Positions 163 to 18,083 of a DNA stretch of 18,083 bases are shown here, piece by piece. The stretch lies in IMG/VR virus record IMGVR_UViG_2651869755_000020; one strand, 5' to 3'. Position numbers and translations under genes: made by a program. Positions within the stretch are counted from its first letter, which is position 1, and each line of letters begins with the position of its first letter. This DNA comes from a virus. Its lineage: Duplodnaviria; Heunggongvirae; Uroviricota; Caudoviricetes. The notes under the pieces were generated by a model, which worked only from the letters and a program-made list of their open reading frames with translations, was not told where the DNA came from and searched no databases.

Positions 163-215
163 ACTTAGATGTCCGTCTATATCAGATGGGCGTCTAAGTT
201 ACCAATTCTCGTCTG

Positions 216-1346: not shown

Positions 1347-1360
1347 TTTAAGGAGAGAGC

Positions 1361-2314: not shown

Positions 2315-2323
2315 GGAGGCGTT

Positions 2324-2662
2324 ATGGGAACCACTCAGCAGGTCATTCTGATCACAACCGTAACGGCAGGGGCAGCACTGGCACAGCAGCGTTTTGTCGG
2401 GGCAGATAATACCCCCTGTAAAGCCGGTGCCGCAGCGCTCGGGGTTGCCGAAGTGGATGCTGTTACCGGCGACAGCACGCCGGTGAGCGTTCTGGGCATT
2501 ATTGCTGTCGAGGCCGGGGCCGCTGTCAGCCGTGGTGTGGCTGTTCAGTCAGATGCTCAGGCCAGAGCCGTGCCGCAGTCCGGCGACGGTAAATCCTGTG
2601 GTATTGCACTTGATGAAGCCGGGGGTGAAGGCGACGTCATTCGTATCCTGCGCGGGGTGTGA
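2324..2662 (+). CDS. small head-associated protein (Ala/Gly/Val-rich; hypothetical, possible decoration or head-completion protein)
   Basis: 112-aa ORF with AAGGAGG RBS 6 nt upstream, 9 bp after the capsid gene stop. Composition is Gly/Ala/Val-rich. Function not recognised with confidence. Confidence 0.55.
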   Translation: MGTTQQVILITTVTAGAALAQQRFVGADNTPCKAGAAALGVAEVDAVTGDSTPVSVLGIIAVEAGAAVSRGVAVQSDAQARAVPQSGDGKSCGIALDEAGGEGDVIRILRGV

Positions 2663-2663
2663 C

Positions 2664-3110
2664 ATGTACTGCACCCTGGAGGATTTGCTTGCGCAGGTGC
2701 CGGAGCGGACGCTTATCGAACTCACCAGTGAAGAGATGGACTTCGACTCGCCTGCAACAGTGAATACCCGTGTGGTGGACAGCTGTATCCGCTATGCCGA
2801 CGAGCTGATTGATGCCCATCTGCGCGGACGCTATATCCTGCCACTGGCAGAGATACCGACTGTTCTGCGGGACATTGCCATCACGCTGGTCCGTTACCGG
2901 CTCTACGCCCGCCGCCCGGAAGGTGACCTCCCGGATACGGTGAAGGATGACCACAAAGAAGCGCTGCGGCAACTCAGGGAGTTACGTGATAACAGGCTCA
3001 CGCTGGGGCTGCCGTCCACTCAGAAAGATGTGCCTGAGCCTGGCGAGTTTCGTGTACGCAGTCGCCCGGCCACTTTCGGCGGTCGTGACGGTTTACTGGA
3101 GAAATACTGA
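2664..3110 (+). CDS. head-tail joining / neck protein (Mu gp36-position, DUF1320-like)
   Basis: ATG at 2664 lies 1 nt after the upstream stop (2660-2662) and is in frame with the track ORF 2502..3110. The earlier start would overlap the preceding gene by 160 bp, so the 148-aa version is preferred. Position matches Mu neck genes. Confidence 0.55.
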   Translation: MYCTLEDLLAQVPERTLIELTSEEMDFDSPATVNTRVVDSCIRYADELIDAHLRGRYILPLAEIPTVLRDIAITLVRYRLYARRPEGDLPDTVKDDHKEALRQLRELRDNRLTLGLPSTQKDVPEPGEFRVRSRPATFGGRDGLLEKY

Positions 3111-3574
3111 TGAACGTTCTGCCCGTCCTTGATGCGGTGCTGGCCCGGTTACGCGAGAAGCTGCCGCAACTGCAGGTGGAGTACTTCCCGGAGAAACCGG
3201 CTGAATATCGCCTGAACCATCCGGTTGGCGCGTTGCTGCTGAGCTATGCCGGTTCGCGCTTTGACAGGCCGGATGATACCGGTGCGGTGATCCAGTCTCA
3301 GACTATCCAGCTCTGCGTCACGGTGGTCTTCCGCCAGCTCAACGGTAAAAAAGGGGCGATTAATGTCCTGGATGCTGTCCGCCGCATTCTCGGTGGCCAC
3401 ACCCCGCCCGGGTGCCGCTGCCGTATCTGGCTGACCCGCGAGGTGTTTATCGGTGAAGTCAGGGGGCTGTGGCAATACGCCCTCGACTTCGCGACTGAAA
3501 GCATCTTTATCGAAGACAGCGATTTACCGTCCGGCCCGCTGTTAACCGAAGTGAACTATGAGGAAAGCGAGTGA
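3110..3574 (+). CDS. head/neck completion protein (Mu gp37-position)
   Basis: 154-aa ORF whose ATG overlaps the upstream stop (ATGA-type overlap at 3108-3112), indicating translational coupling within the operon. Confidence 0.55.
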   Translation: MNVLPVLDAVLARLREKLPQLQVEYFPEKPAEYRLNHPVGALLLSYAGSRFDRPDDTGAVIQSQTIQLCVTVVFRQLNGKKGAINVLDAVRRILGGHTPPGCRCRIWLTREVFIGEVRGLWQYALDFATESIFIEDSDLPSGPLLTEVNYEESE

Positions 3575-3825
3575 TGAAAGAATACCGCTATTCCGGCCCG
3601 GCCAGCGGCGTCACGCTGTCGGACGGAACCGAAATCCTGCTCTGGCCGGGGAAGACGGTTTCCCTGCCGGAGGAGCATGACTACGTGAAGGTACTGGTGG
3701 CGCTGAAGCATCTGACGCCGGTACCAGAAGATACTAAACCCGCCGTCACACCGGCTGTGCAGTCACCAAAGCGCAGAAGCAGCAGTGACAGCGAAGTGAA
3801 AACGGAGGACGCCCATGGCAGCTAA
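3574..3825 (+). CDS. small phage protein of unknown function (Mu gp38-position)
   Basis: ATG at 3574 with AGGAAA/GAGG upstream, overlapping the upstream stop. The track starts it at GTG 3571. C-terminal tail is Ser/Lys/Glu-rich. Overlaps the sheath gene start by 11 nt. Confidence 0.5.
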   Translation: MKEYRYSGPASGVTLSDGTEILLWPGKTVSLPEEHDYVKVLVALKHLTPVPEDTKPAVTPAVQSPKRRSSSDSEVKTEDAHGS

Positions 3826-5242
3826 CTATCTGCATGGTCCCGAAACCATTGAGGTGGAAAACGGAGCCCGCCCGGTTAAAACGGTGAAATCTGCCGTTAT
3901 TGGCCTGATTGGTACCGCCCCGATGGGGGATGTCAATACGCTGGTACAGTGCCTGTCTGAGAAAGACGCAGCGGCATTTGGCAGCCAGTTCACCGGCTTT
4001 ACCATTCCGCAGGCGCTGGATGCGATTTATGACCATGGTGCAGGCACCGTTCTGGTCATTAACGTCCTCGACCCGGCGAAACATAAAACGGCGATCGAGG
4101 ATGAGGTGGTTACCTTTGACAAATCGACAGGGCAGGCCAGACTGGCGCATCCGGTTGTCGCTAATGTGGTGGTGAAAAACAGTGAAGGCAGCACCACCCA
4201 CACGGCGAACACGGACTACCGTGTTGATGCGCAGGCGGGTGTGCTCACGAACCTGGGCAAGGCTATTGAGGCCGGTGGCAGCGTGAAGGTGAGCTATGAG
4301 TACGCGGACCCGTCGAAGGTGACTGCGGCGGACATCATCGGCGGGGTGAACAGCGCCGGAAACCGAACCGGCATGAAGCTGCTTAACGACAGCTTCAACC
4401 TGTACGGCTATTTCGCCAAAATTCTGATTGCGCCGGTGTTCTGCACCCAGAAGAGTGTCGCAGTTGAGCTTATCGCCATGGCAGAGAAGCTGGGCGCGGT
4501 AACCTACATTGATGCGCCTGTCGGTACCACCTTTGCACAGGCTCTGGCAGGTCGTGGCCCGGAAGGCACCATCAACTTCAATACCAGCTCCGACCGCGTC
4601 CGTCTGTGCTATCCGCATGTGAAGGTATATGACCCGGTGACAAACACAGAGCGTCTGGAGCCGCTCAGCCAGCGTGCAGCAGGTCTGCGTGCCAGAGTCG
4701 ATCTGGACAAGGGCTACTGGTGGTCATCCTCCAATCAGGAGATTCTGGGGATCACCGGCGTGGAGCGCCAGCTGTCCGCGATGATTGATGACCCGCAGAG
4801 TGAGGTGAACCTGCTTAACGAACAGGGGATCACCACGGTATTCAGCAGTTACGGCAGCGGCCTTCGTCTGTGGGGTAACCGGACGGCAGCATGGCCAACG
4901 GTCACCCATATGCGTAACTTTGAGAACGTTCGCCGCACCGGTGATGTGATCAACGAGTCCATTCGTTATTTCAGCCAGCAGTACATCGACATGCCGATTA
5001 CTCAGGCGCTGATTGATGCACTGACGGAGTCGGTCAACGCCTACGGTCGCAAAATGACTGGTGATGGTGCGGTACTGGGCTTCCGTTGCTGGTTTGATCC
5101 GGCCCGCAATCCGGAGACGGAGCTGGCCGCCGGGCACCTGTTGCTGAGCTACAAATATACGCCACCACCGCCGCTGGAGCGACTGACGTTTGAGACTGAG
5201 ATCACCTCGGAATACCTGTTAACCCTGAAAGGGGGCAACTGA
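3815..5242 (+). CDS. contractile tail sheath protein
   Basis: 475-aa ORF with GGAGG RBS at 3803-3807. Size and position (immediately before a roughly 170-aa tube gene) are diagnostic of myovirus sheath proteins. Confidence 0.85.
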   Translation: MAANYLHGPETIEVENGARPVKTVKSAVIGLIGTAPMGDVNTLVQCLSEKDAAAFGSQFTGFTIPQALDAIYDHGAGTVLVINVLDPAKHKTAIEDEVVTFDKSTGQARLAHPVVANVVVKNSEGSTTHTANTDYRVDAQAGVLTNLGKAIEAGGSVKVSYEYADPSKVTAADIIGGVNSAGNRTGMKLLNDSFNLYGYFAKILIAPVFCTQKSVAVELIAMAEKLGAVTYIDAPVGTTFAQALAGRGPEGTINFNTSSDRVRLCYPHVKVYDPVTNTERLEPLSQRAAGLRARVDLDKGYWWSSSNQEILGITGVERQLSAMIDDPQSEVNLLNEQGITTVFSSYGSGLRLWGNRTAAWPTVTHMRNFENVRRTGDVINESIRYFSQQYIDMPITQALIDALTESVNAYGRKMTGDGAVLGFRCWFDPARNPETELAAGHLLLSYKYTPPPPLERLTFETEITSEYLLTLKGGN

Positions 5243-5763
5243 TGTCAAAGATTGAGATAAACCGCATCACGAATGCCAACATCTATCTGGATGGTACTAA
5301 CCTGCTGGGACGGGCTGAGGAAGTCAAACTCCCCGATGTCTCCATGATTATGCAGGAACACAAGGCGCTGGGGATGGTGGGTAAGGTGGAACTCCCGGCT
5401 GGTTTTGACAAGCTGGAAGGCGAAATCAAATGGAACAGCTTTTACCGCGATGCGATGCTGTCTGCCGCGAACCCGTACAGGTCGCTGGCACTGCAGTGTC
5501 GTTCCAGCGTCCAGCGCTACAGCTCGCAGGGGCTGATTGACGAAATCCCGCTGGTCACCTTCCTGACGATTATGTTCAAGAAGAACCCGCTGGGGACGTT
5601 CAAACAGCACGAGAACGCCGAGTTCTCCAGTAGCTTCACCTGCACGTATATCAGACAGGTACTGGATGGTGAAGAGCTGCTGCAACTGGACTATCTGGCC
5701 AACATCTTCCGGGTCGGCGGTGTTGATCAACTGACTGACTACCGTATCAATATCGGGGGCTGA
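5242..5763 (+). CDS. tail tube protein
   Basis: 173-aa ORF whose start overlaps the sheath stop. Classic sheath-tube gene pair. Confidence 0.8.
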   Translation: MSKIEINRITNANIYLDGTNLLGRAEEVKLPDVSMIMQEHKALGMVGKVELPAGFDKLEGEIKWNSFYRDAMLSAANPYRSLALQCRSSVQRYSSQGLIDEIPLVTFLTIMFKKNPLGTFKQHENAEFSSSFTCTYIRQVLDGEELLQLDYLANIFRVGGVDQLTDYRINIGG

Positions 5764-5765
5764 CG

Positions 5766-6047
5766 GTGAGTGTTGAACTGACGGATAAAGGAGGACGATG
5801 TGCGGCACTGGGCATGTCAAATGGTACGTGGTTTACCCTCCTTGATATTCCGGGGGTGGAAACCCTTTTTAATACCCGTAAAACCAATGACCCGATTGAC
5901 TGCACACGTTCAAAGGCCCGCAAACTGGCGGATTTGATTGAAGCATGGGAGCCTCCCGACCACTGGTTCTCCGGCATCGGCAAATCTGAGGGAAAGACGC
6001 TTCTCATCGCTTTCCTGCGTAACTGCAAGGGGTTTCGCACTTGCTGA
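5766..6047 (+). CDS. small hypothetical protein (about 77-93 aa, four Cys); possible accessory (moron-like) gene between tube and chaperone
   Basis: ORF in operon orientation starting at GTG 5766 or in-frame ATG 5814 (AAGGAGGA at 5787-5794). Followed by a hairpin terminator candidate. No family recognised. A 97-aa ORF on the opposite strand covers the same DNA, so the coding strand is not certain. Confidence 0.35.
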   Translation: MSVELTDKGGRCAALGMSNGTWFTLLDIPGVETLFNTRKTNDPIDCTRSKARKLADLIEAWEPPDHWFSGIGKSEGKTLLIAFLRNCKGFRTC

Positions 6048-6053
6048 CATCAC

Positions 6054-6080
6054 AGGGGCTCCGGCCCCTTCTTCTTAATC
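6054..6080 (+). terminator. candidate intrinsic terminator (GC-rich hairpin AGGGGC-TCCG-GCCCCT followed by TTCTTCTT)
   Basis: Perfect 5-6 bp G/C stem at 6054-6069 followed by a T-rich run interrupted by C, directly after the small ORF stop at 6047. Confidence 0.4.
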
Positions 6081-6144
6081 TCCTTTAATATCCGTCACGC
6101 GCTTCTCCCGACATACTGCCCTGAACTTACACAGGAGCACAATC

Positions 6145-6480
6145 ATGTCACAGACCCCATCCGATACTTTTAAATTGTCTTATCCCTTCACCACTGCTGC
6201 AGGCACCAGAATTGAGCTGGTTGAACTGAAACGCCTGACGGTAAAAGACCTGAAGCAGGTGCGCAAAATCAGCAAAAACCCGGCAGACTGGGACGAACCG
6301 CTGATTGCCCGCAGTACTGGTCTTCTCCCGGAAGATCTCGACAATATGGATCTGGCTGATTACCTGCAGTTACAGAAACGATTTCAGCTCATCACGGGGA
6401 TGGGTGAGAGCAACCAGGGCGCTGACGCAGGCGCAGGGGCTGCTGGCGAGATGGTTCCGGTTTCAGCCGGGGGAGATTGA
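6145..6480 (+). CDS. tail assembly chaperone (position equivalent to lambda G / P2 E / Mu gp41)
   Basis: 111-aa ORF with AGGAG RBS 8 nt upstream, located between the tube and tape measure genes. Acidic protein, as expected for tape-measure chaperones. Confidence 0.6.
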   Translation: MSQTPSDTFKLSYPFTTAAGTRIELVELKRLTVKDLKQVRKISKNPADWDEPLIARSTGLLPEDLDNMDLADYLQLQKRFQLITGMGESNQGADAGAGAAGEMVPVSAGGD

Positions 6481-6562
6481 TGCCCTCGATACTGACGATC
6501 TGGAGATGTGGCTGGAGCAGGCTGAAGAGCAAATCAAAAGCGAGTACGGCGACAAATCATAG
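6305..6562 (+). CDS. overlapping second frame; candidate frameshift extension of the tail assembly chaperone
   Basis: Open frame overlapping 6305-6480 in the +1 frame relative to the chaperone and continuing 27 codons beyond its stop (...RFQPGEIDALDTDDLEMWLEQAEEQIKSEYGDKS). Protein-like acidic tail. Position matches the conserved chaperone frameshift of tailed phages. Confidence 0.35.
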   Translation: MPAVLVFSRKISTIWIWLITCSYRNDFSSSRGWVRATRALTQAQGLLARWFRFQPGEIDALDTDDLEMWLEQAEEQIKSEYGDKS

Positions 6563-6637
6563 TACAGACAGCCGCCAGTAGCGGCTGTTCTGCGTTATCC
6601 CCTCACGTCTTTTCACCTTCCCCGGAGGTTAACCACT

Positions 6638-9600
6638 ATGTCGGGACAGTTTTCAGTCGGCGTTGTTATCGGCGGGATGATTGGCAGCACATTCCGTTCT
6701 GCAATGAGCGGTACCCGCCGTGCGCTTGATTCCCTGAGCGATACCTCACGCCGCCTGCAGGAACGTCAGAACGCTTTAACCCGTGCAACAGAACGTTATG
6801 GTCAACTGGGTTCTTCCCGGATGCAGCATCTCAACAGCGAGCTGCTGCGGGTAAGCCGCACCATGGAGCAAATTGAGCGCCAGCAGCGCCGTCTGTCAGC
6901 GGCATCCGCTACCAGTGATGCGCTGAAAGCTAACCGCATGGCGCTGTATGGTCAGGGGATTGAAGCGTATGGCATGGCACAGACTGTTTATCATACGGTT
7001 TCCCCTGCCGTTCAGCAGTCCATGTCTTTTCAGGACAAAATGATTGATATGTCGATCACCGCAAAATATGACAATAAAACGCGGGATGCACTTGCCGGAC
7101 AGATAAAAGGCTGGGCGCTTAAATACAATCAGTATCAGGATGAGCTGCAGGAGGCGGTGGGTTCACTCATCAGCGACAATATTGATAATGTGTCAGATAT
7201 CGGTTTTCTGATGCCGGATATTGCCCGCGCGGCAACGGCAACACGCACGTCTGCTCAGGACTGGGCAAAAGTGGCCGCAGTCTGGCAAAACTCCCTGAAA
7301 GGTGCGGCCAGAGATTTTGGTGCCGTTCAGAATATTATGGCTTATGCCGGTGACCAGGGGTCATTTGAAATCCCGGATCAGGTCAAGTGGATGCAGTCCC
7401 TGGCCCCAATGATGGCGGGTCTTGCCAGTGGAAAAGAGGCTGTTGCTGAAATCGGGGCCAGTCTCCAGATAGCAAAAATCGGTGCAGGTTCCACCGACGA
7501 AGCAGCCAATAATTTTAAAAACTTTCTTACCAAAATTTTTGCCCGCGATACTCAGAAACAGTTTGCTGATCTGGGTATTGATTTGCAGGGATCTATTGCG
7601 AGTTATAAAGCTGCGGGGATCTCTCCGATTGAAGGGATGTTGAGTGTTATAGAACGTTACCTCAATGCCAAAAGCCCCGAAGCGCTGGCCGGCTTCAAAT
7701 CAGCCATGAAAATAAAGAATGATACGGCAAGAGATGAGGCACTTCAGGCTCTGGCGAAAAACTTTGGTCTGGGCGATATGTTCGCGGATATGCAGGTCAT
7801 GGCATTTATCCGCCCGATGCTGGCCAACATGGACAGATATCGAGAGATCCGTGCCGGTGCTCTCAGGGCTGCGGATAACGATTTGCTTGCCAGTGCTTAT
7901 GATCAGCGGCTGAAATCTCCCCTTGAAGCCACTAAAACACTTATGGTCAGCAGTCGCGATCTGGCAATTACGCTGGGCGATCAATTAGCTCCATCTTTTA
8001 TTTCTCTGACTCAGGAACTGCTCCCACTCATTCAGGGGACAAAACACTGGGTAGCGACTCACCCGCAATTTGTCAGTGGGGCTTTTAAGCTCATCAGTGC
8101 GCTCCTTGCGATTAAGATAGCGACTATTGGTCTCAAACTGGGGCTGAATCTCCTTATTTCCCCCTTTGTGAACGTCTGGAAAACTACTGTTTTACTCCGG
8201 ACCAACTGGCATCGACTGACTACCGCACTCGGAGAAGGTGGCAAATTACGCTGGCTTGTCACTGGATTCAGCCGACTGACCAGCGGAGGACTGAAACTCA
8301 GCAAAGTTCTGGCGGGCAGCCTCGTTCGCGGTTTTATGAGCGCTGCACGTGCCGTTCTCTGGATTGGGCGAGCGCTGATGATGAATCCCATCGGTCTCGT
8401 TATCACCGCTGTCGCGACAGCAGCTTACCTTATCTACCGCAACTGGGGGGCTGTCAGTGGTTGGTTTAAACAGCGCTGGGCTGACATTCAGGAAGCCTTT
8501 AACGGCGGCATTGTGGGAATTGGTAAGTTGCTGATTAACTGGTCGCCGGCAGGCCTGCTCTATAAAGCCTTTGCGGCTGCGCTGAAATATTTCGGCGTTG
8601 CTCTGCCGGCAAAGTTCACCGACTTCGGTGGCCATCTTATCGACGGTCTGATTAACGGTATCAAAAGCAAATGGGGGTCGCTCAAATCCAGTGTAACCGG
8701 AATGGGTGACAGCATCAGTAGCTGGTTTAAACAGCGCTGGGCTGACATTCAGGAAGCCTTTAACGGCGGCATTGTGGGAATTGGTAAGTTGCTGATTAAC
8801 TGGTCGCCGGCAGGCCTGCTCTATAAAGCCTTTGCGGCTGCGCTGAAATATTTCGGCGTTGCTCTGCCGGCAAAGTTCACCGACTTCGGTGGCCATCTTA
8901 TCGACGGTCTGATTAACGGTATCAAAAACAAATGGGGGTCGCTCAAATCCAGTGTAACCGGAATGGGTGACAGCATCAGTAGCTGGTTTAAACAGTGCTG
9001 GGCTGACATTCAGGAAGCCTTTAACGGCGGTATCGCGGGAACTGGTAAGCTGCTGATTAACTGGTCGCCGGCAGGTCTGCTCTATAAAGCCTTTGCAGCT
9101 GCGCTGAAATATCTTGGTGTTGATCTGCCGGCAAAGTTCACCGACTTCGGTGGCCATCTTGTCGACGGTCTGATTAACGGTATCAAAAACAAATGGGAGT
9201 CGCTCAAATCCAGTGTAACCGGAATGGGTGACAGCATCAGTGGCTGGTTCAGCGAAAAGCTGGGCATTCATTCGCCGAGCCGCGTGTTTATGGGCTTTGG
9301 TGACAATATCGCGCAGGGGGCCGCCATTGGCCTGCAGCGGACCACTCCGCTTGCAGCTCTGGCCGGGCAGCGAATGGCCAGTGAACTGCTCCCCAGAATG
9401 CCCGTGAGCATTCAGGGGCCAGAAATACGGGATAACACTTCAGGTGTTCGCTTCAGTATGCCGTTGCCCGATATCAATGGGTTTATGTCGTCTGCTAAAA
9501 ATGCGATCGGAGCCGTAATCAATAGTTTGTCTTCCATGCCCGTTATTCCGCTCTCCACCCGGGCATCGATTTTACCAGGGCAACGTCTGGCAAATGAGAT

Positions 9601-9850
9601 GACACCGGATGTTCCCCGTATCCCCTCGCCTGAAATCCTGGCTGCCGGATATTCAGGCCGTGGTGCAGCTGCAACCGGCGGTGGAACGTCTGGTGGTATC
9701 CAGGTCAGCTTTAATCCTCAGTTTTTCCTCAATGGCAGGGAAACCACAGCGCCTGCAGGACTGACTGGTGCCCTGAATATGAGTCTGCATGAGCTGGAAA
9801 AAATGCTGGAGCGTCTGCTGGCTCAGAAACAACGTAAGGAGTACCGCTGA
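6638..9850 (+). CDS. tail tape measure protein
   Basis: 1070-aa ORF with GGAGG RBS, the largest gene, directly downstream of the chaperone pair. Has a long helical N-terminal half and internal tandem repeats. Start of the downstream gene overlaps its stop. Confidence 0.9.
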   Translation: MSGQFSVGVVIGGMIGSTFRSAMSGTRRALDSLSDTSRRLQERQNALTRATERYGQLGSSRMQHLNSELLRVSRTMEQIERQQRRLSAASATSDALKANRMALYGQGIEAYGMAQTVYHTVSPAVQQSMSFQDKMIDMSITAKYDNKTRDALAGQIKGWALKYNQYQDELQEAVGSLISDNIDNVSDIGFLMPDIARAATATRTSAQDWAKVAAVWQNSLKGAARDFGAVQNIMAYAGDQGSFEIPDQVKWMQSLAPMMAGLASGKEAVAEIGASLQIAKIGAGSTDEAANNFKNFLTKIFARDTQKQFADLGIDLQGSIASYKAAGISPIEGMLSVIERYLNAKSPEALAGFKSAMKIKNDTARDEALQALAKNFGLGDMFADMQVMAFIRPMLANMDRYREIRAGALRAADNDLLASAYDQRLKSPLEATKTLMVSSRDLAITLGDQLAPSFISLTQELLPLIQGTKHWVATHPQFVSGAFKLISALLAIKIATIGLKLGLNLLISPFVNVWKTTVLLRTNWHRLTTALGEGGKLRWLVTGFSRLTSGGLKLSKVLAGSLVRGFMSAARAVLWIGRALMMNPIGLVITAVATAAYLIYRNWGAVSGWFKQRWADIQEAFNGGIVGIGKLLINWSPAGLLYKAFAAALKYFGVALPAKFTDFGGHLIDGLINGIKSKWGSLKSSVTGMGDSISSWFKQRWADIQEAFNGGIVGIGKLLINWSPAGLLYKAFAAALKYFGVALPAKFTDFGGHLIDGLINGIKNKWGSLKSSVTGMGDSISSWFKQCWADIQEAFNGGIAGTGKLLINWSPAGLLYKAFAAALKYLGVDLPAKFTDFGGHLVDGLINGIKNKWESLKSSVTGMGDSISGWFSEKLGIHSPSRVFMGFGDNIAQGAAIGLQRTTPLAALAGQRMASELLPRMPVSIQGPEIRDNTSGVRFSMPLPDINGFMSSAKNAIGAVINSLSSMPVIPLSTRASILPGQRLANEMTPDVPRIPSPEILAAGYSGRGAAATGGGTSGGIQVSFNPQFFLNGRETTAPAGLTGALNMSLHELEKMLERLLAQKQRKEYR
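8462..9244 (+). repeat. three tandem 261-bp (87-codon) in-frame repeats inside the tape measure gene
   Basis: Unit begins TGGTTTAAACAGCGCTGGGCTGACATTCAGGAAGCC at 8462, 8723 and 8984. Copies 1 and 2 differ at a single base (AAAAGC vs AAAAAC). Copy 3 carries about a dozen substitutions. Confidence 0.9.
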
Positions 9851-10734
9851 TGTTTGCCGTACTGGGTGATATTGAGTTTGAGCTGATTACCTACTGGGAC
9901 GGCTTCGAGGCCACGTTCGGCGTCGATTATGCGGAGCATGCCCGCATCGGGGGTAAGCCTGGCCTGCAGTTCGTCGGCGACAGGCTGGACGAAATCCAGA
10001 TAACTCTGGTTTTCCATCAGCATTATTGTGTACCCGATGTGGAGCTGGCGAGACTGCGAACAGCCATGAAAGCCCATCAGGCACTGGCGCTGGTCTTCGG
10101 CAACGGTGACTATCGCGGCTGGTTCGTGATTACCGATGTGACTGCAACCAGCGAGCAGACTGACAGTACCGGCAACGTGCTGGCTGTCAGTGCCACCGTG
10201 TCTCTCCGGGAATACACCGGTGACCCGAAAAATCCTCTGCAACCACCGGCAATACGCACGAAGCTCCCGGGTGTCGGGGCGGTCTCCGGTGCCATTCCTT
10301 CACCTTCCGGGGTGGCGCAGTTCATCCGCAACGGCGTCAACTATGCGAAACAGGCGCAGTCTGTACTCCAGACCACTATCAGCGCCGTTCGAGTGACACA
10401 GAAAATGAAGGATAACCCCGTTGTCGCACTGACCCGTGTGCCGGGGCTGATGAGCGGACTGGGTAATATCTCCGGGGCTCTGGGGAAAAGTGTTCCGGCG
10501 TTTAACGCACTCTCTGAATCCATGCCCGATGCCATCAGTCTGGCCAGAACAGCCAGCGAAGCAGCCACGTATGTACAGCAGGCACAGTCTGCGCTGAGTG
10601 GTGTGGACAAAAGAAATATTGCAGGTGCTCTGGATACCGTTTCCGGGCAGCTTAACGCCGTCGGAACAGCATTCAACCGCATGTCTCCGGGATTAAGTGC
10701 AATGGCCGCCAGAATACTGACGAGGAGTGTGTGA
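9850..10734 (+). CDS. tail protein with P2 gpU-like N-terminal domain (Mu gpN / DNA-circularisation protein position)
   Basis: 294-aa ORF with start overlapping the TMP stop. N-terminus (MFAVLGDIEFEL...GKPGLQFVGDRLDEIQITLVFH...GNGDYRGWFVITDV...SLREY) follows the gpU family pattern as I recall it. Sits immediately after the tape measure gene as in Mu. Confidence 0.6.
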   Translation: MFAVLGDIEFELITYWDGFEATFGVDYAEHARIGGKPGLQFVGDRLDEIQITLVFHQHYCVPDVELARLRTAMKAHQALALVFGNGDYRGWFVITDVTATSEQTDSTGNVLAVSATVSLREYTGDPKNPLQPPAIRTKLPGVGAVSGAIPSPSGVAQFIRNGVNYAKQAQSVLQTTISAVRVTQKMKDNPVVALTRVPGLMSGLGNISGALGKSVPAFNALSESMPDAISLARTASEAATYVQQAQSALSGVDKRNIAGALDTVSGQLNAVGTAFNRMSPGLSAMAARILTRSV

Positions 10735-10946
10735 TGTTTCTTGAACATGTTACCCGTGACGGAGAGCGCTGGGATTCGCTGGCATGGCAGTACTACGGTG
10801 ACCCGCTGGGCTATCCCCGGATTATTGCCGCCAATCCGCACGTGGCCATCACGCCGGTGCTGCCCTCCGGGCTGTTGTTACTGATCCCGGTGATTGAGGC
10901 TGAAGAAGCCCGTACAGAAGAGGATATTGCCCCATGGCTGAGATAA
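10731..10946 (+). CDS. tail protein X-like small protein (LysM-like fold family)
   Basis: 71-aa ORF with GAGGAG RBS and ATGA overlap with the upstream stop. Sequence (RWDSLAWQYYGDPLGYPRIIAANPHVA...LPSGLLLLIP) resembles P2 gpX-type proteins that precede gpD homologues. Confidence 0.55.
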   Translation: MMFLEHVTRDGERWDSLAWQYYGDPLGYPRIIAANPHVAITPVLPSGLLLLIPVIEAEEARTEEDIAPWLR

Positions 10947-12106
10947 ACAGCACTGCGCAAGTCACATCAGCGTTAACCGGCGTCAGCGATGTGCTGACAC
11001 CGGTGTTCACTCTGTGGTATCTGCAGAAAAACATCACCTCTGATATCGCGCCTTATGTCACCCGTGTGACCTGGAGCGATAACATCAAAAATGAGTCCGA
11101 TACCATTGAGGTGGAGCTGGACGACACCGATGGCCGCTGGCTGGATAAGTGGTATCCGGGCAAGGGTGACACGCTGACGCTGAAAATGGGCTATCAGGAC
11201 GAGAAGCTGCTGTCCTGCGGTACGTTCTCTATAGACGAGATCGAAGTGAGTTCGCCCGCTTCCGTTGTTTCTATCCGTGGGGTGGCCACCTCGGTTAACA
11301 GTGCCCTGCGGACTAAAACCAGTCGTGGTTTTGAGAACACCACGCTGGCAGCTGTTGCGGGGCGGATTGCCAGAAAGCACCGGCTGAAACTGGTGGGCAG
11401 CATTGAGTCCATCAGAATCGACCGGGTGACCCAGTATGCTGAAACCGACGTGGGTTTTCTGCGCCGGCTGGCCAGCGAGTATGGTTATGCAGTGAAAGTG
11501 GTCAGTGACCAGCTGATTTTTTCTCATCTGGCCACACTGCGCAGTCAGGAGCCGGTCAGGCAGTTAAAACCGCAGGATGTGGCCCGCTTTTCCCTGCGTG
11601 ACACCATCAACCGGGTCTATAAATCTGCAAAGGTAAAACACCAGAAAAGCAGCAGTAAAAAACTGATCGTCTACGAAGCTGATGGTGGTACCCGTGAAAG
11701 CGACAAAAAGCTCAAAGGTGGTAAGGTTACCAGCGCTGACTCACTTAAAGTTAACAGCCGCGTCAGCGACCCGGACAGTGCCCGGATTAAAGCGGATTCA
11801 GCACTGGCCAGACATAACGAATACCAGCAGAACGGCTCCCTGACGCTGACGGGAACACCTCAACTGACAGCAGGCAACAAAATTGAACTGGTGGGTTTTG
11901 GGCAGTTATCCGGGCCATGGCTCATAACCACTGCCCGCCATGCGTTTGACCGTAACAGCGGCTACACCACAGAGCTGGAAGTGGCACGGGGGCCGATCAC
12001 ACAGGGCAAGGCGAAGAAAGGTAAAAAAATCGGCAAAACCCGGATGCTGACCATCTATAAACCGGACGGCAGCACGTCCACAGTAATAAGAGAGAAGAAA
12101 AAATGA
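10934..12106 (+). CDS. tail/baseplate hub protein, P2 gpD-like (Mu gpP position)
   Basis: 390-aa ORF following the X-like gene and preceding the spike gene. Lys-rich C-terminus. Order X-D-V-W-J-I matches Mu/P2-type baseplate modules. Confidence 0.65.
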   Translation: MAEINSTAQVTSALTGVSDVLTPVFTLWYLQKNITSDIAPYVTRVTWSDNIKNESDTIEVELDDTDGRWLDKWYPGKGDTLTLKMGYQDEKLLSCGTFSIDEIEVSSPASVVSIRGVATSVNSALRTKTSRGFENTTLAAVAGRIARKHRLKLVGSIESIRIDRVTQYAETDVGFLRRLASEYGYAVKVVSDQLIFSHLATLRSQEPVRQLKPQDVARFSLRDTINRVYKSAKVKHQKSSSKKLIVYEADGGTRESDKKLKGGKVTSADSLKVNSRVSDPDSARIKADSALARHNEYQQNGSLTLTGTPQLTAGNKIELVGFGQLSGPWLITTARHAFDRNSGYTTELEVARGPITQGKAKKGKKIGKTRMLTIYKPDGSTSTVIREKKK

Positions 12107-12699
12107 CTGGTGTCACTCGTCAGGTCGGTACGGTCAGTGCCGTTGATGCCGACAGGGTTCAGGCCCGCGTTCGTCTGCCTGAATGCGATAACCTGCGCAC
12201 AAACTGGCTTAACGTGCTGCAGCGCAATACCCAGGATAACAAAGATTACTGGCTCCCTGACGTGGGGGAGCAGGTTGAGGTGCTGCTCGATGCCAACGGC
12301 GAGGATGGTGTTATTCTGGGCGCGGTGTATTCAGACGTCGATAAACCACCGTTCAGTGACAAAAATATCCGGGGAACCCGGTTTGCTGATGGTGCAGAGT
12401 ACAGCTACAACCGGAAGACGCACACTCTGATCATCCGGGGCGGCATTGAGCATATTGTCATTGAGTGTGGTGCTGATGTGGTATTGAAAACACAGAAAGC
12501 CACGATTGACGCACCGGAAACCGAACTTACCGGAGATCTGCGTGTCAGGGGTAAGCTGATTTACGAAGGAGGCATGGCGGGTTCTGGTGGTGAAGGTGTT
12601 ACCGCGACCATCCATGGCAATATCGAGATTAAAGGGAATGCCCATGCCACGGGCAGTATGTTGTCTGATGGCGAAAACTCCAGCCACCACTCCCACTGA
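12103..12699 (+). CDS. baseplate spike / assembly protein V-like (Mu gp45 position)
   Basis: 198-aa ORF with start overlapping the upstream stop. Size and sequence character (OB-fold-like N-terminus, Gly-rich C-terminal tip ending SSHHSH) fit gpV-type central spike proteins. Confidence 0.7.
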   Translation: MTGVTRQVGTVSAVDADRVQARVRLPECDNLRTNWLNVLQRNTQDNKDYWLPDVGEQVEVLLDANGEDGVILGAVYSDVDKPPFSDKNIRGTRFADGAEYSYNRKTHTLIIRGGIEHIVIECGADVVLKTQKATIDAPETELTGDLRVRGKLIYEGGMAGSGGEGVTATIHGNIEIKGNAHATGSMLSDGENSSHHSH

Positions 12700-12753
12700 G
12701 CTTTTTAAACGCCTTTAATATCAGCGTTCCCGCACGGGGGCAATACTGCCCCC

Positions 12754-13101
12754 ATGAAAACAACCTCAGTATTCTGGCAACCGACCCTGCAGGCTCCCGG
12801 CGAAATTGTCCGGGGGCTGGATGATATCCGGCAGGCGATTCAAATTATCCTGCGGACTCCCCGCGGCAGCGACCCGCATCGCCCGGAGTTCGGCAGCAAT
12901 CTGCATCTTTATATCGACTGGCCTGTAGACCGGGCCATTCCGCATGTGGTGCGCGAATCCGTCGATGCCATCCGACGCTGGGAGCCCCGCTGCCAGCTTA
13001 TGTCAGTTAAACCCGCCGTCGACGGCGAACATCTTACGCTCCGGGTGAGCTGGAAAGGCTCAGACGGACAGACCCGGACTCAGGAGTTGCTATGGCGCTG
13101 A
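12754..13101 (+). CDS. baseplate wedge protein, gpW / T4 gp25-like
   Basis: 115-aa ORF. Size and position between the spike and the J-like gene are typical of gp25/W lysozyme-fold baseplate proteins. Downstream gene overlaps its 3' end. Confidence 0.7.
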   Translation: MKTTSVFWQPTLQAPGEIVRGLDDIRQAIQIILRTPRGSDPHRPEFGSNLHLYIDWPVDRAIPHVVRESVDAIRRWEPRCQLMSVKPAVDGEHLTLRVSWKGSDGQTRTQELLWR

Positions 13102-14195
13102 CAGAACCCGATTTTATTGAACGCGATGCCGACAAAATCACGGCAGAAATGATTGCGAAGTATGAAGCGGATACCGGCAAAACGCTGTACCCGGCACAGG
13201 CAGAACGTCTGCTGATTGATCTGTGGGCCTATCGCGAAATGCTGGTCAGGGTTGCGGTACAGGAGGCAGCAAAGCAGAATCTGGTCGCCTTTTCACGAGA
13301 GCCGATGATTGATTACCTCGGAGAACTGGTTGGTGTATACCGCCTTGCCGCGCAGCCTGCCACCACCACACTTCAGTTCTCTGTGGATGAGGCACTGACC
13401 ATTGATGTGCTGATCCCGGCAGGCACCCGCGTCAGCGCTTCCGACAGCGTTATTTTTGCCACCGATACAGATGTGGTACTGAAGGCCGGATTGCTGCTGG
13501 TCAATGTCACGTCCACCTGTACCGAACCCGGTACCGCTGGTAACGGCTGGCAACCTGCGCAGGTCAGTCAGTTACTCGATGAGATTGATAACGTCGACCT
13601 GCTGGTGAGCAATCTGACGGCCAGTTCCGGCGGTTCAGAACAGGAAGACGATGACAGGCTCCGGGAGCGTATCAGGCTGGCCCCGGAGTCATTCACCAAT
13701 GCCGGAAGCCGTGGCGCATACCGCTTTCATGCCATGCAGGCCCATCCCAACATTGTCGATGTTGCTGTGCTTTCCCCGGTTCCCGGGACCGTAGATCTGT
13801 ATCCGCTGCTCAGTACCGGTCTGCCGGACGGCGGTGTTCTCACGCTGGTAGAGAGTTTCTGCTCTGATGAGAAAGTCAGGCCACTCACTGATACAGTGCG
13901 GGCTAAAACACCAGTGAAGGTGGATTACACCATTGAAGCCAGGATTACGATCTATCGTGATCAGGATGCCAGGTCTGTAAAAGATGCCGCTAACAGCGCC
14001 ATACAGAACTGGGTGGCATCACGTGCCGCCACGCTGGGGCGTGATATTGTCCCCAGCCAGATTATCAGTGCATTGTCCGTTTCCGGGGTGTACCAGGTTG
14101 AACTGGTGACACCGGCACTGAGGGTGGTGGCAGAAAACGAATGGGCAAACTGTACGGCGATCACACTTAACATGAGTGGAGTGTCTGATGACTGA
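13092..14195 (+). CDS. baseplate protein J-like (Mu gp47 position)
   Basis: 367-aa ORF with AGGAG RBS, overlapping the upstream and downstream genes. Size and position are typical of Baseplate_J family proteins. Confidence 0.75.
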   Translation: MALTEPDFIERDADKITAEMIAKYEADTGKTLYPAQAERLLIDLWAYREMLVRVAVQEAAKQNLVAFSREPMIDYLGELVGVYRLAAQPATTTLQFSVDEALTIDVLIPAGTRVSASDSVIFATDTDVVLKAGLLLVNVTSTCTEPGTAGNGWQPAQVSQLLDEIDNVDLLVSNLTASSGGSEQEDDDRLRERIRLAPESFTNAGSRGAYRFHAMQAHPNIVDVAVLSPVPGTVDLYPLLSTGLPDGGVLTLVESFCSDEKVRPLTDTVRAKTPVKVDYTIEARITIYRDQDARSVKDAANSAIQNWVASRAATLGRDIVPSQIISALSVSGVYQVELVTPALRVVAENEWANCTAITLNMSGVSDD

Positions 14196-14766
14196 GCCAT
14201 TACAACTCCCGCCACCGCTTGAGGGTGATATCAGTCTCAGGACGCTGGGAAGACTGGCAGGGCGGCTGGATAACATCGACCTGAGCGTACTGATGGTCTT
14301 TCTCGTCGATATCGTCGACAGTTCTGCGCTGCCATGGCTGGGCGAGCAGTTCTCACTGTCTGGCGATGGCTGGGAGCTGGCGGAATCGGACGATGTTCGC
14401 CGCATGCTTATAAAAGCAGCCATCGAACTACACCGGTATAAAGGGACGCCGTGGTCAATCCGGGAAGTTATCCGCCGTTTTGGCTTTGGTGAAGTGGATC
14501 TGATTGAAGGCACAGGTCGTCTCAGTTACGACGGCAATCGCAGCTATAACGGACTGTTTGTTCATGGAGATGCAGCCGCCTGGGCGGTTTATCGCGTTAT
14601 TCTGAAACAGCCCATTACTAACGATCAGGCCGCGATGCTGCGTCAGACGCTCGCTGCATTTGCACCGGCCCGCTGCCATCTGGCCAGCCTGGAGTATCAG
14701 TCTGTGGCCATTCGCTATAACAATACCGCCATCCATGATGGCAGTTATAACCACGGGAGCAGTTGA
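14188..14766 (+). CDS. baseplate/tail protein I-like (Mu gp48 position)
   Basis: ATG at 14188 (MTEPLQLPPPLEGD...) is in frame with the track ORF that begins at GTG 14176. It overlaps the upstream stop by 8 nt. 192 aa, immediately before the tail fiber gene as in P2 (I-H) and Mu (R-S). Confidence 0.65.
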   Translation: MTEPLQLPPPLEGDISLRTLGRLAGRLDNIDLSVLMVFLVDIVDSSALPWLGEQFSLSGDGWELAESDDVRRMLIKAAIELHRYKGTPWSIREVIRRFGFGEVDLIEGTGRLSYDGNRSYNGLFVHGDAAAWAVYRVILKQPITNDQAAMLRQTLAAFAPARCHLASLEYQSVAIRYNNTAIHDGSYNHGSS

Positions 14767-14768
14767 TT

Positions 14769-16391
14769 ATGGGAAACCTGAATGAAACAGAAAAGTGGGA
14801 AGAAAAAATCTATCAACTGGAGACATCAGATCCGGTTCTGGGTGGTGCTGACGGGATATCAAATCGAGCCCCCCGGCAACTGGCAAACAGGACGAAATGG
14901 CTGAAGAAAAAAACGGAGGAAGCCGCACAGTCACTGGCTGAACACGTACGTTCCCGTAACCACCCGGACGCGACACTGACAGCTAAGGGGTTCACCCAAC
15001 TGAGCAGTGCCACCAACAGCACCTCTGAAACGCTGGCCGCCACACCAAAAGCCGTCAAGGCTGCATACGACCTTGCAGCCGGCAAGGCACCCGTCAGTCA
15101 CACTCACCCGTGGAGTCAGATAACGGGAGTGCCTGCTGCCTCGCTGACGGCAAAAGGCACCGTACAGCTGAGCAGTGCCACGGACAGTCAATCAGAAACT
15201 GAGGCTGCCACGCCGAAGGCTGTGAAAATCGCGTATGATCTGGCCCGGGGAAAATACACAGCCCAGGATGCAACAACGACCCGTAAAGGGATCGTACAAC
15301 TGAGCAGTGCCACCAACAGCACCTCTGAAACGCTGGCCGCCACACCAAAGGCCGTCAAGGCTGCATATGACCTGGCTGCCGGCAAGGCCCCCGTCAGCCA
15401 CACTCACCCGTGGAGTCAGATAACGGGAGTGCCTGCTGCCTCGCTGACGGCAAAAGGCACCGTACAACTGAGCAGCGCCACGGACAGTCAATCAGAAACT
15501 GAGGCTGCCACGCCGAAGGCGGTCAAGGCTGCATACGACCTTGCAGCCGGCAAGGCGCCCGTCAGCCACACTCACCCGTGGAGTCAGATAACGGGAGTGC
15601 CTGCTGCCTCGCTGACGGCAAAAGGCACCATACAATTGAGCAGTGCCATCAACAGCACGTCTGAAATACTGGCCGCCACACCGAAAGCGGTCAAGGCTGC
15701 ATACGATCTGGCAAACGGAAAACAACCGGCAGATGCCACGCTCACTGCTCTGGCAGGACTTGCCACTGCAGCAGATCGGTTGCCTTATTTTACCGGAGCA
15801 GACCGCGCAGCGCTGGCAACCCTTACAGCTATTGGTCGCGCTATTATCGCTAAGGGCAGTATAAAAGATGTCCTCAATTACCTTGGTTTGGGGGAAGGCT
15901 CTGCACTGCCTGTTGGTGTGCCTGTTCCATGGCCCACCGCCACACCGCCAGCAGGCTGGTTAAAGTGCGACGGGCGCGCCTTTACAAAAGAACAATATCC
16001 TGTTCTGGCCAGAGTCTACCCGACCCTCCGTCTTCCCGATTTGCGCGGTGAGTTTATCCGTGGATGGGACGACGGGCGCAAAGTTGATACGGGGCGTTCA
16101 TTGCTAAGTGGTCAGGCTGCAACATTTATTCGTACAGCTTTGCAGGATTATTACGGTTACGATCTGAATACTAATGTCAAAGTAGGTATCGCTTTTGCTA
16201 CTGCTGATTCTGTTATAACCGTTGGAAACCCAGCTAATCCTAAAGCAGGAAAAAATAGCGATTATGTTCCTGCATCAGCAGATAACTCTATAACGGGTAT
16301 TCAAAGGACAGCGGAGGATAATTTTACCGGGGCATGGATATCAATGCGCCCCCGCAATGTTGCGTTTAATTACATCGTAAGGGCCGCATAA
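14769..16391 (+). CDS. tail fiber protein with internal phage-fiber repeats and a C-terminal collar-type receptor-binding domain
   Basis: 540-aa ORF from ATG 14769 (GGGAG RBS about 10 nt upstream; the track starts at TTG 14763). Five copies of the motif LTAKG-x-QLSSAT-x-S-x-SET-x-AATPKAVK-x-AYDLA, typical of lambda Stf / Mu S / P2 H fibers. C-terminal region (PWPTATPPAGWLKCDGRAF...LPDLRGEFIRGWDDGR) resembles the phage tail collar domain. Confidence 0.85.
   Translation: MGNLNETEKWEEKIYQLETSDPVLGGADGISNRAPRQLANRTKWLKKKTEEAAQSLAEHVRSRNHPDATLTAKGFTQLSSATNSTSETLAATPKAVKAAYDLAAGKAPVSHTHPWSQITGVPAASLTAKGTVQLSSATDSQSETEAATPKAVKIAYDLARGKYTAQDATTTRKGIVQLSSATNSTSETLAATPKAVKAAYDLAAGKAPVSHTHPWSQITGVPAASLTAKGTVQLSSATDSQSETEAATPKAVKAAYDLAAGKAPVSHTHPWSQITGVPAASLTAKGTIQLSSAINSTSEILAATPKAVKAAYDLANGKQPADATLTALAGLATAADRLPYFTGADRAALATLTAIGRAIIAKGSIKDVLNYLGLGEGSALPVGVPVPWPTATPPAGWLKCDGRAFTKEQYPVLARVYPTLRLPDLRGEFIRGWDDGRKVDTGRSLLSGQAATFIRTALQDYYGYDLNTNVKVGIAFATADSVITVGNPANPKAGKNSDYVPASADNSITGIQRTAEDNFTGAWISMRPRNVAFNYIVRAA
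14976..15720 (+). repeat. in-frame direct repeats inside the tail fiber gene (five fiber-repeat units; two about 220-bp stretches nearly identical)
   Basis: Units start near 14976, 15144, 15281, 15445 and 15613. Stretches beginning CAACTGAGCAGTGCCACCAACAGCACCTCTGAAACG at 14997 and 15298 remain near-identical for about 220 bp. Confidence 0.85.
15881..15922 (+). repeat. left inverted repeat of the invertible cassette; overlaps a hix/gix-like crossover site (about 15871-15896, core TT at 15883-15884)
   Basis: CCTTGGTTTGGGGGAAGGCTCTGCACTGCCTGTTGGTGTGCC. Its reverse complement matches 16416-16457 at 40 of 42 positions. The half-sites around the TT core resemble the 12-2-12 recombination sites of Hin/Gin/Cin/Pin invertases. 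Confidence 0.7.
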
Positions 16392-16415
16392 AAACGTTGG
16401 TTTAGGAGAAGGCTC

Positions 16416-16457
16416 GGCACACCAACAGGCAATGCAGAGCCTTCCCCCAAACCAACG
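16416..16457 (-). repeat. right inverted repeat of the invertible cassette (core AA at 16454-16455), about 65 bp upstream of the invertase start
   Basis: GGCACACCAACAGGCAATGCAGAGCCTTCCCCCAAACCAACG is the reverse complement of the left repeat with 2 mismatches. Placement next to the invertase gene mirrors gixR/gin and hixR/hin. Confidence 0.7.
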
Positions 16458-16521
16458 TTTATCTCTCAAATCCTCCCCACATTATCTCAGTACTTTAACC
16501 ACTCAAAAGGGAGTATTTTTA

Positions 16522-17094
16522 ATGCTGATTGGCTACATACGTGTGTCAACAAATGACCAAAACACAGATTTGCAACGCAATGCATTAATGTGCGCAGGAT
16601 GTGAACAGATTTTTGAGGACAAAATGAGCGGAACCAAGTCGGAACGACCAGGCCTGAAACGCGCTTTAAAGTGCCTTAAAAGAGGGGATACATTGGTGGT
16701 CTGGAAGCTGGATCGGTTGGGTAGAAGAATGAAACACCTCATTGCTCTCACAGAAGAGCTACGCGCAAAAGGTGTCAATTTTCGCAGTCTGACGGATTCA
16801 ATCGATACCAGCACTCCGATGGGAAGGTTCTTTTTTCATATGATGGGTGCACTGGCAGAAATGGAGCGTGAACTGATAGTTGAGCGCACGCTGGCAGGAC
16901 TGGCTGCTGCGCGAGCACAAGGAAGAGTTGGAGGACGTCGCCCGAAACTGACGAAGGAGCAGCATGAGCAGATCGCAAGATTGCTCCAGAAAGGGTATGA
17001 CAGAAAGCGGCTGGCAATTATCTATGATATTGGACTGTCAACGATCTACCGCTACCACCCTGTTGGGACTGTCATAACGCAACCTGAAATGTAA
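16522..17094 (+). CDS. site-specific DNA invertase, serine recombinase of the Gin/Pin/Cin/Hin family
   Basis: 190-aa ORF from ATG 16522 (AAAGGGAG RBS). Begins MLIGYIRVSTNDQNTDLQRNAL..., with GDTLVVWKLDRLGR and the C-terminal HTH, near-identical in pattern to Gin/Pin as recalled. The track start at 16432 adds 30 non-conserved residues and overlaps the inverted repeat, so it is rejected. Confidence 0.9.
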   Translation: MLIGYIRVSTNDQNTDLQRNALMCAGCEQIFEDKMSGTKSERPGLKRALKCLKRGDTLVVWKLDRLGRRMKHLIALTEELRAKGVNFRSLTDSIDTSTPMGRFFFHMMGALAEMERELIVERTLAGLAAARAQGRVGGRRPKLTKEQHEQIARLLQKGYDRKRLAIIYDIGLSTIYRYHPVGTVITQPEM

Positions 17095-17172
17095 TTCTTT
17101 TTCAAATAATGAAACGCCGCGTGGATGCCATTTATCGCACAAGATAGAGTGCATTTATCGCGCGGCGCATCA
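17095..17172 (+). mobile_element. putative right terminus (attR end) of the Mu-like prophage with repeated transposase-binding-like motifs
   Basis: Two copies of GCATTTATCGC (17128-17141 and 17149-17163). Terminal sequence ...TTTATCGCGCGGCGCATCA ends in CA and matches my recollection of the Mu right end (...TTTTTCGTGCGCCGCTTCA) at about 15 of 19 positions. Host prpR coding sequence begins immediately after. Confidence 0.5.
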
Positions 17173-17710
17173 CGTCGGCGGGCATCAGCCTGTTCCGGTA
17201 GATGTACGGGTCATTAGCGCCACTCACTGCAATCTGGAAGAAGATATGCAGCAAGGACGTTTTCGCCGTGATCTGTTTTATCGGCTGAGTATTTTGCGTC
17301 TGCAATTGCCACCACTGCGCGAGCGGGTGGCGGATATTCTTCCGCTGGCGGAAAGCTTTTTGAAAGTGTCTCTGGCGGCGCTCTCCGCCCCATTTTCTGC
17401 TGCATTACGCCAGGGGTTACAGGCAAGTGAAACTGTGCTGCTGCACTACGACTGGCCAAGCAATATTCGTGAACTGCGCAATATGATGGAACGACTGGCG
17501 CTGTTTTTAAGTGTGGAACCGACGCCGGATTTAACGCCGCAGTTTATGCAACTGCTACTGCCGGAACTGGCGCGCGAGTCGGCGAAAACTCCCGCTCCAC
17601 GCTTACTGACACCACAACAGGCACTGGAGAAATTTAATGGCGATAAAACAGCAGCGGCGAATTATTTAGGCATCAGCCGGACGACGTTCTGGCGGCGGCT
17701 GAAAAGCTGA
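17173..17710 (+). pseudogene. prpR: 3' fragment (about 180 codons) of the sigma-54-dependent propionate regulator gene, cut by the prophage insertion
   Basis: The frame translates from about 17173 as ...VGGHQPVPVDVRVISATHCNLEEDMQQGRFRRDLFYRL..., the conserved end of a sigma-54 activator AAA+ domain, then a C-terminal Fis-type HTH (NYLGISRTTFWRRLKS). The same frame upstream of about 17170 is not activator-like. Convergent yahO follows after 97 bp, as in the E. coli yahO-prpR arrangement I recall. Confidence 0.7.
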
Positions 17711-17712
17711 AC

Positions 17713-17743
17713 TGCCGAATGCAGCGCGAACGCTTTATCCGGC
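17713..17743. repeat. REP-like palindromic element between the convergent prpR and yahO genes
   Basis: Reverse complement reads GCCGGATAAAGCGTTCGCGCTGCATTCGGCA, resembling the E. coli REP consensus (GCCGGATAAGGCGTTTACGCCGCATCCGGCA-type). Confidence 0.4.
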
Positions 17744-17807
17744 ATAAATTTCAATAGATGATCACCGATAAACTTACGCATCGGAGATGTTTACATAGGA
17801 TTCAGAA

Positions 17808-18083
17808 TTACTTCTTCTTATAAATATTTGCCGTGCCGTGGATCTTATTGTCAGTTTGACCGGAGGTCAGTACCAACACATCAGCCCCTTTTTCATCCGC
17901 TTTTTTGATCAAATCTTCTTTTGCATCTGCAGTCGACATTTCATTGCTGGTTGAAATATCACCTATTTTTTCATACTGCGATTCAACTTTTTCAAATTCC
18001 GCTTTGGTCATCAATTCAGCGGCATAGACATTGGTAACGGCTAACGCTAACGCACCGACTAACATTTTAGAGATTATTTTCAT
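17808..18083 (-). CDS. yahO: small periplasmic DUF1471 (YdgH/BhsA/McbA-type) protein
   Basis: 91-aa ORF with signal peptide ([21 protein letters not shown]) and the C-terminal motif [26 protein letters not shown] typical of DUF1471 proteins. Matches my recollection of E. coli YahO. Start codon is the last three bases of the window. Confidence 0.85.

Follow-up and report, generated by a model that had tools for sequence, protein, structure and literature searches.

The window, by which we mean the whole 18,083-nucleotide stretch of DNA analysed here, runs from the end of an insertion sequence through the late genes, tail fibre gene and DNA invertase gene of a prophage, and passes directly into the 3' part of the Escherichia coli gene prpR and its neighbour yahO. 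The features on which the argument depends are the following.

1-247, minus strand: right-hand end of ISEc23 (IS66 family), inserted in the prophage; it matches mobile elements only, and the ISEc23 tnpA, tnpB and transposase genes are annotated
216-1346, plus strand: head maturation protease gene (phrog_976, E 1.9e-159); the listed open reading frame begins at an ATG in the IS end
248-16391, plus strand: late block encoding the head and a P2-like contractile tail, from the annotation of a near-identical RefSeq genome and 98.7% identity to phage PhiKM
14769-16391, plus strand: tail fibre gene, its C-terminal part within a small invertible cassette, from annotation, inverted repeats and relatives
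15880-15922, no strand: left arm of a 43-nt inverted repeat, putative invertase crossover site, 95% complementary to 16416-16458
16416-16458, no strand: right arm of the same repeat, putative invertase crossover site, from its complementarity to the left arm
16522-17094, plus strand: Gin/Cin-type serine DNA invertase, the last prophage gene, with Pfam Resolvase and HTH_7 domains and 77% identity to Mu Gin
17095-17172, plus strand: right end of the prophage, 78 bp, terminating ...GCGCATCA; the same terminus stands beside seven different host flanks
17130-17138, minus strand: end repeat GCGATAAAT, inner copy, 35-43 from the terminus, putative transposase-binding site
17153-17161, minus strand: end repeat GCGATAAAT, outer copy, 12-20 from the terminus, putative transposase-binding site
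17173-17178, plus strand: right copy of the 6-bp target-site duplication CGTCGG (prpR nt 1050-1055), from comparison of both junctions and the K-12 site
17173-17710, plus strand: 3' third of prpR (nt 1050-1587; residues 351-528), encoding the end of the AAA+ sigma-54 interaction domain, the lid domain and a Fis-type HTH
17808-18083, minus strand: yahO, the usual downstream neighbour of prpR, from its K-12 match, annotation and locus order

The boundary between phage and host can be placed exactly. In a megablast comparison of positions 16400-18083 with 5426 complete E. coli genomes, K-12 and other ordinary strains matched the query only from 17173 onwards, across prpR and yahO, and matches in the phage database end at 17172, which sets the boundary between these two positions. 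The invertase reading frame stops at 17092-17094 and is followed by 78 bp that close with ...GCATTTATCGCGCGGCGCATCA at 17172, the final bases being CA, so that the Mu-like right end which the initial annotation had placed after the invertase stop and inside prpR is indeed there. The same annotation had read the downstream frame as the C-terminal part of a sigma-54 activator followed by yahO. This frame (17174-17707) is free of stops and carries, by Pfam, the end of Sigma54_activat (the last 43 profile positions), AAA_lid_14 and HTH_8, and over this 3' part of prpR the identity with K-12 is 99.9%. The gene is broken after nucleotide 1055 of 1587 (66%), at residue 352 of 528 and within the sigma-54 interaction domain (residues 219-393), in agreement with the earlier estimate of an insertion about two-thirds through prpR in its AAA+ domain.

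The left end of the prophage lies outside the window, and our left-junction data come from a near-identical public genome, NZ_CP091756.1 (strain LC-1302-2020), rather than from the window's own genome; the window is 99.99% identical to it, save for one 300-bp tail fibre repeat unit. In NZ_CP091756.1, prpBCDE and prpR nt 1-1055 are followed directly by TGATTAGACTTGAGATAAATG... and by a 38.5-kb prophage that ends at the window's right end, and the 5' two-thirds of prpR thus occupies the other prophage boundary, as had been anticipated. K-12 reads gaggtcacccgCGTCGGcgggcatc at the insertion point, and the prophage of NZ_CP091756.1 is flanked by CGTCGG on the left and on the right. Deletion in silico of the prophage and one copy of CGTCGG yields an open prpR of 1587 nt (528 codons), and because this rebuilt reading frame differs from K-12 by a single nucleotide, the interruption is taken to be clean and of recent evolutionary date. 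The identity of the gene as prpR is given by the prpBCDE-prpR-yahO synteny and by the PrpR_N, Sigma54_activat and HTH_8 domains, all of which are present across the two halves.

The 5' reading frame of the interrupted gene stops two codons inside the phage (...VTRVGD*) and encodes PrpR 1-352 plus Asp. The first in-frame ATG of the 3' fragment corresponds to residue 375 (17246-17710), and transcription from the phage end would give a 154-aa peptide comprising the lid and HTH. A scan of 16380-17830, spanning the invertase to the prpR 3' fragment, found no promoter or terminator above shuffle expectation. In several other strains IS1A or IS903B transposase annotations lie under the same prpR match, so that prpR may be a gene that mobile elements interrupt repeatedly.

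The length of the target-site duplication was established from the prpR insertion and six further complete prophage copies, with both ends located in each. All seven copies begin TGA and finish ATCA, giving TG...CA termini, and all seven are flanked by a 6-bp direct repeat: CGTCGG, ACAAAT, TTTCAG, ACAAAT, CCTCGC, TTTCTG and ATGCGT. A 5-bp duplication had been predicted for the other prophage end, but this length does not hold for any of the seven. We also considered a 5-bp duplication with a variable first phage base, which was tenable at four junctions, where the base before TG tracked the left-end variant; the full set of seven excludes it, as this base varies within a single left-end variant. 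It is from these seven junctions that the 6-bp length is taken; a published value for BcepMu-type phages was not found, the KS10, saltovirus and Sodalis papers giving none. The ACAAAT duplication is shared by two independent insertions, in rstB and yqhA (positions 2575 and 40275 of locus L004; 3633 and 41674 of L006). This may hint at a target preference, on which seven sites are too few to say.

The element is a BcepMu-type (Bcepmuvirus-like) transposable prophage of about 36 kb, or 38.5 kb including a secondary IS66-family insertion, and is not Mu proper. Its closest deposited phage is Escherichia phage PhiKM, of the genus Bcepmuvirus, with 98.7% identity across 87% of the window, and Mu gave no nucleotide match to the window in the same search of the phage collection. 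The transposase shares 69% identity with BcepMu gp09 over 581 aa and carries rve as its only Pfam domain, its AAA+ partner being an AAA_22 protein. Reading inward from the left end, the genes encode Mor, gp16/GemA, small ORFs, Gam, ExeA/AAA_22, the rve transposase, and DUF3102 and HTH proteins, all transcribed toward the left end and so inverted relative to Mu; beyond them lie a divergent repressor candidate and the lysis, head, P2-like tail, tail fibre and invertase genes. The order and strands of this early region are those of BcepMu genes 1-12, and inversion of the whole left-end region with respect to other Mu-like phages has been described as a shared trait of the BcepMu family (PMC3091646). 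TG...CA termini have likewise been stated for BcepMu relatives (PMC2628397).

The internal organization of the ends provides a further link to BcepMu. The initial annotation had noted repeated motifs in the last 78 bp, and CATTTATCGC is present there twice, at 17129-17138 and 17152-17161, with a spacing of 23 bp. Reading inward, the right end has the form TGATGCGCCGC-GCGATAAAT-G...-GCGATAAAT and the left end the form TGATTAGACTT-GAGATAAAT-G...-GAGATATTT, so that G(A/C)GATAWWT stands at 12-20 and 35-43 of both ends here, as it does at both BcepMu ends. In the 49-kb locus L001 the motif GMGATAWWT occurs four times only, always at the equivalent end positions, a count that is partly circular as the motif was derived from these very ends and that leaves BcepMu as the sole independent check. 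These end repeats are likely transposase-binding sites.

How this element relates to Mu itself requires more careful treatment, as the initial annotation had treated it as a phage of the Mu/D108 type. At the superfamily level this description stands. Phrog_310 is strongly matched by MuA, BcepMu gp09 and the present transposase, with MuA and this transposase falling at overlapping profile positions, and the B proteins of Mu, BcepMu and this phage all score to phrog_296; “Mu-like” is therefore a fair term for the superfamily. The terminus too is similar. Aligned ungapped from the end, the right terminus ...GCGCGGCGCATCA shares 15 of 19 and 17 of 22 positions with that of Mu, the former being exactly the value given in the initial annotation. 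In 200,000 shuffles of the Mu 22-mer the score of 17 for the terminal 22 nt (17151-17172) was never reached, and when every 22-mer of the 36.7-kb Mu genome was taken, on either strand, only one other position attained it. This likeness is confined to the terminal ~20 nt and one CGATAAATG, which Mu R2 also contains, with a shift of one base in register.

These similarities, together with homologues of Mor, gp16/GemA and Gam and an invertase 77% identical to Mu Gin, are what might favour a true member of the Mu/D108 family (Muvirus) that had entered by MuA-type transposition and duplicated 5 bp of its target. We nevertheless consider such an origin very improbable. BLASTP found no similarity between the transposase and MuA (E = 0.48), and a sequence search of the PDB with the transposase returned weak matches to retroviral-integrase cores only, with no MuA and no TnsB; on these comparisons the two transposases would be remote homologues at best. 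The D108 record gives a MuA-binding consensus, YMYNWRAARYRCGAAAR, which occurs at zero to one mismatches three times each in Mu R, Mu L and D108 R. Neither this phage nor BcepMu has a site within three mismatches of it at either end, and the best site in the 120 nt of either end here has four mismatches, which is the background level. The inverted early region, the lack of a nucleotide match to Mu in the phage search and a duplication of 6 bp in 7/7 insertions all argue in the same direction, and it is at the level of the family that the Mu/D108 assignment gives way to the BcepMu type.

The similarity of the termini invites a more speculative reading, to which we give only tentative credence, namely that the terminal ~20 bp of the BcepMu type (TGAWGCG.CGC.CGA.A..) and Mu R1 share a conserved, functionally constrained core. 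This core would hold despite differences in the internal binding-site consensus, in the spacing of the repeats (23 as against 22 bp) and in the length of the duplication (6 as against 5 bp). Were it true, two transposase lineages linked only through a common PHROG would keep a common way of engaging the cleaved end, and the ends might be partly cross-recognised in E. coli carrying both phage types.

The distribution of the BcepMu-type prophage across E. coli genomes bears directly on how it came to lie in prpR. Its last 153 bp are found in 597 of the 5426 complete genomes, with at least 99% identity in 586 of 599 matching records, and among 60 records listed the right end adjoins many genes, including fliZ, rstB, yqhA, phnP, ssnA, emrA, irp1, gspL and upaG. 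Fourteen of the 655 places matching the prophage right end are on plasmids rather than chromosomes. Since the same end stands beside many host genes and the duplications are of unrelated sequence, the insertion is an instance of quasi-random transposition and not of site-specific integration, as the initial annotation had proposed. The prpR junctions occur in only three of the 5426 genomes, the carriers of the left and right junctions being the same three. Both junctions are 100% identical among them and, by the match coordinates, their prophages measure about 38.5, 37.1 and 39.7 kb, according to IS and cassette content, a pattern in keeping with a single ancestral insertion that later gained IS sequence and changed in its cassettes.

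Exactly the same junctions in three genomes could in principle indicate that prpR is an attachment site for a phage integrase. There is, however, no tyrosine or large-serine integrase annotated in the element, whose own genes are instead for a DDE transposase with an AAA+ partner; in other genomes this end is found against many genes that have no relation to one another, the flanking repeats are unrelated in sequence, and the prpR site accounts for 3 of 597 carriers, whose shared junctions and differing lengths fit inheritance of one event. We therefore give site-specific integration by an integrase almost no weight. That the prpR sequence here is left over from a duplication, or was created by faulty assembly, with an intact prpR elsewhere, is equally hard to credit, as the left-junction query finds one place in each of the three carrier genomes and the right-junction query a single place in all but MMC-J-0105, where it finds two, no intact second prpR was seen with these queries in the three, the halves join to a full-length gene at the normal prpBCDE-prpR-yahO locus, and three independently assembled complete genomes concur.

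Given the junctions, duplication, family assignment and random insertion sites observed here, we are highly confident that 17095-17172 is the right end of a BcepMu-type prophage that transposed into prpR, and that it did so by the following route. DDE-transposase-mediated transposition would have put the phage into the gene, with a Tn552/rve-type transposase acting together with an AAA+ MuB-like partner. The transposase would bind the paired G(A/C)GATAWWT copies at each TG...CA end, and target cuts staggered by 6 bp would give rise to the CGTCGG duplication. In this model the left junction would consist of prpR nt 1-1055 followed by TGATTAGAC..., and the right junction of ...GCGCATCA followed by CGTCGG.

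It is possible to predict the effect of this event on the host. PMC4987338, citing Palacios and Escalante-Semerena 2000 and 2004, describes PrpR as the sigma-54 enhancer-binding protein that activates prpBCDE in response to 2-methylcitrate. The truncated protein would keep the PrpR_N sensor, Walker A/B and the GAFTGA loop, and would be without the arginine-finger region (RFRRDLFYRL), the lid and the DNA-binding HTH. As such, it should be incapable both of enhancer binding and of ATP hydrolysis in a ring, and with the arginine-finger segment, lid and HTH missing it should fail to activate the sigma-54 prpBCDE promoter. Propionate-induced gene activation is probably abolished in the strain. In the lineage, represented by three complete genomes and the window, the 2-methylcitrate pathway is probably no longer inducible, with possible effects on growth on propionate, or tolerance to it, in the gut.

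The prophage copy itself bears signs of later change. The 8-bp target duplication of the IS, TTTTAAAG, corresponds to window positions 240-247, and the same 8 bp are single in the intact relative L005; ISEc23 as a whole spans 24566-27097 of L001. The element lies within the head maturation protease gene, at codons 6-9, and splits off its native first ~8 codons from the rest. An in-frame ATG inside the IS (window 216) gives a possible fusion reading frame, and given this IS-internal start inactivation of the protease is likely but not certain; the prophage copy may be unable to make heads. The late block that follows comprises major head, sheath, tube, tape measure, gpD/V/W/J/I-like and tail fibre genes. 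The tape-measure gene contains three 261-bp tandem units (8454-9249), the genes of relatives measuring 3213 or 2952 nt, exactly one unit apart. Between the repressor candidate and the holin, positions 14766-16938 of L001 form a variable cargo slot by comparison with L004, L005 and L012, occupied here by hypothetical proteins and an ‘ABC transporter ATPase’ and elsewhere by a DNA adenine methylase, or by a nucleoid-associated protein and a methylase.

The tail fibre region has its own source of variation. The invertase displays the features of its class, with a Resolvase domain and a C-terminal HTH, and adjoins a tail fibre segment lying between inverted repeats, and the relative L006 carries the segment 15883-16418 in the opposite orientation. 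The invertible region here is a single C-terminal cassette, while relatives have a larger segment with a tail fibre assembly gene and alternative fibre ends. No minus-strand reading frame of at least 50 aa starts and ends within the cassette (15880-16458), so that its inversion would probably truncate the fibre. A third, partial site lies at 16392-16419, only 13 nt from the right arm. The tail fibre gene also contains internal tandem repeats at 14997-15713, with self-matches at offsets of 168 and 300 nt, and the window has one 300-bp unit fewer than NZ_CP091756.1.

Taken as a whole, the locus presents a known and very common type of E. coli prophage in its ordinary behaviour, with little import beyond the annotation of the strain. 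The prpR junction is a handy clonal marker, and the by-products of the analysis are firm ends, a 6-bp duplication and candidate transposase-binding repeats for a prophage type found in ~11% of complete E. coli genomes.

Comparison with known systems brings out both sides of this assignment. The element resembles the BcepMu-like phages (BcepMu, PhiKM and Klebsiella phage KP12) in its transposase, at 69% identity to BcepMu gp09, in its ExeA/AAA_22-type B protein and DUF3102 protein, in having Mor and GemA adjoin the left end with the early operon inverted, and in its P2-like tail module, its TG...CA ends and the two G(A/C)GATAWWT copies at each of them, as well as in a late region 98.7% identical to PhiKM. 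It differs from BcepMu in that the latter ends with an acyltransferase gene, whereas this phage ends with an invertible tail fibre cassette and a Gin-like invertase, and it differs from the group in that this copy bears an IS66-family insertion. With Mu and D108 the phage, known here from sequence, has in common the character of a transposable temperate myovirus, quasi-random gene-inactivating insertion and TG...CA ends. With Mu it further shares 17 of the terminal 22 nt of the right end, one CGATAAATG, a Gin-type invertase (77%), and a transposase and B protein in the same PHROGs as MuA and MuB. Unlike Mu and D108, it has neither pairwise similarity to MuA nor the MuA consensus at its ends, its end repeats are spaced by 23 rather than 22 bp, it duplicates 6 rather than 5 bp, its early region is inverted, and no com/mom module follows its invertase. 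Finally, the BcepMu record labels its transposase as of the Tn552/IS1604 rve type, and rve is the sole Pfam domain of the transposase here. The likeness to Tn552 is drawn via this BcepMu annotation, and the present element is a complete phage genome rather than a small transposon. Tn552 itself generates duplications of 6-7 bp, with which the 6 bp observed at all seven insertions here would agree.
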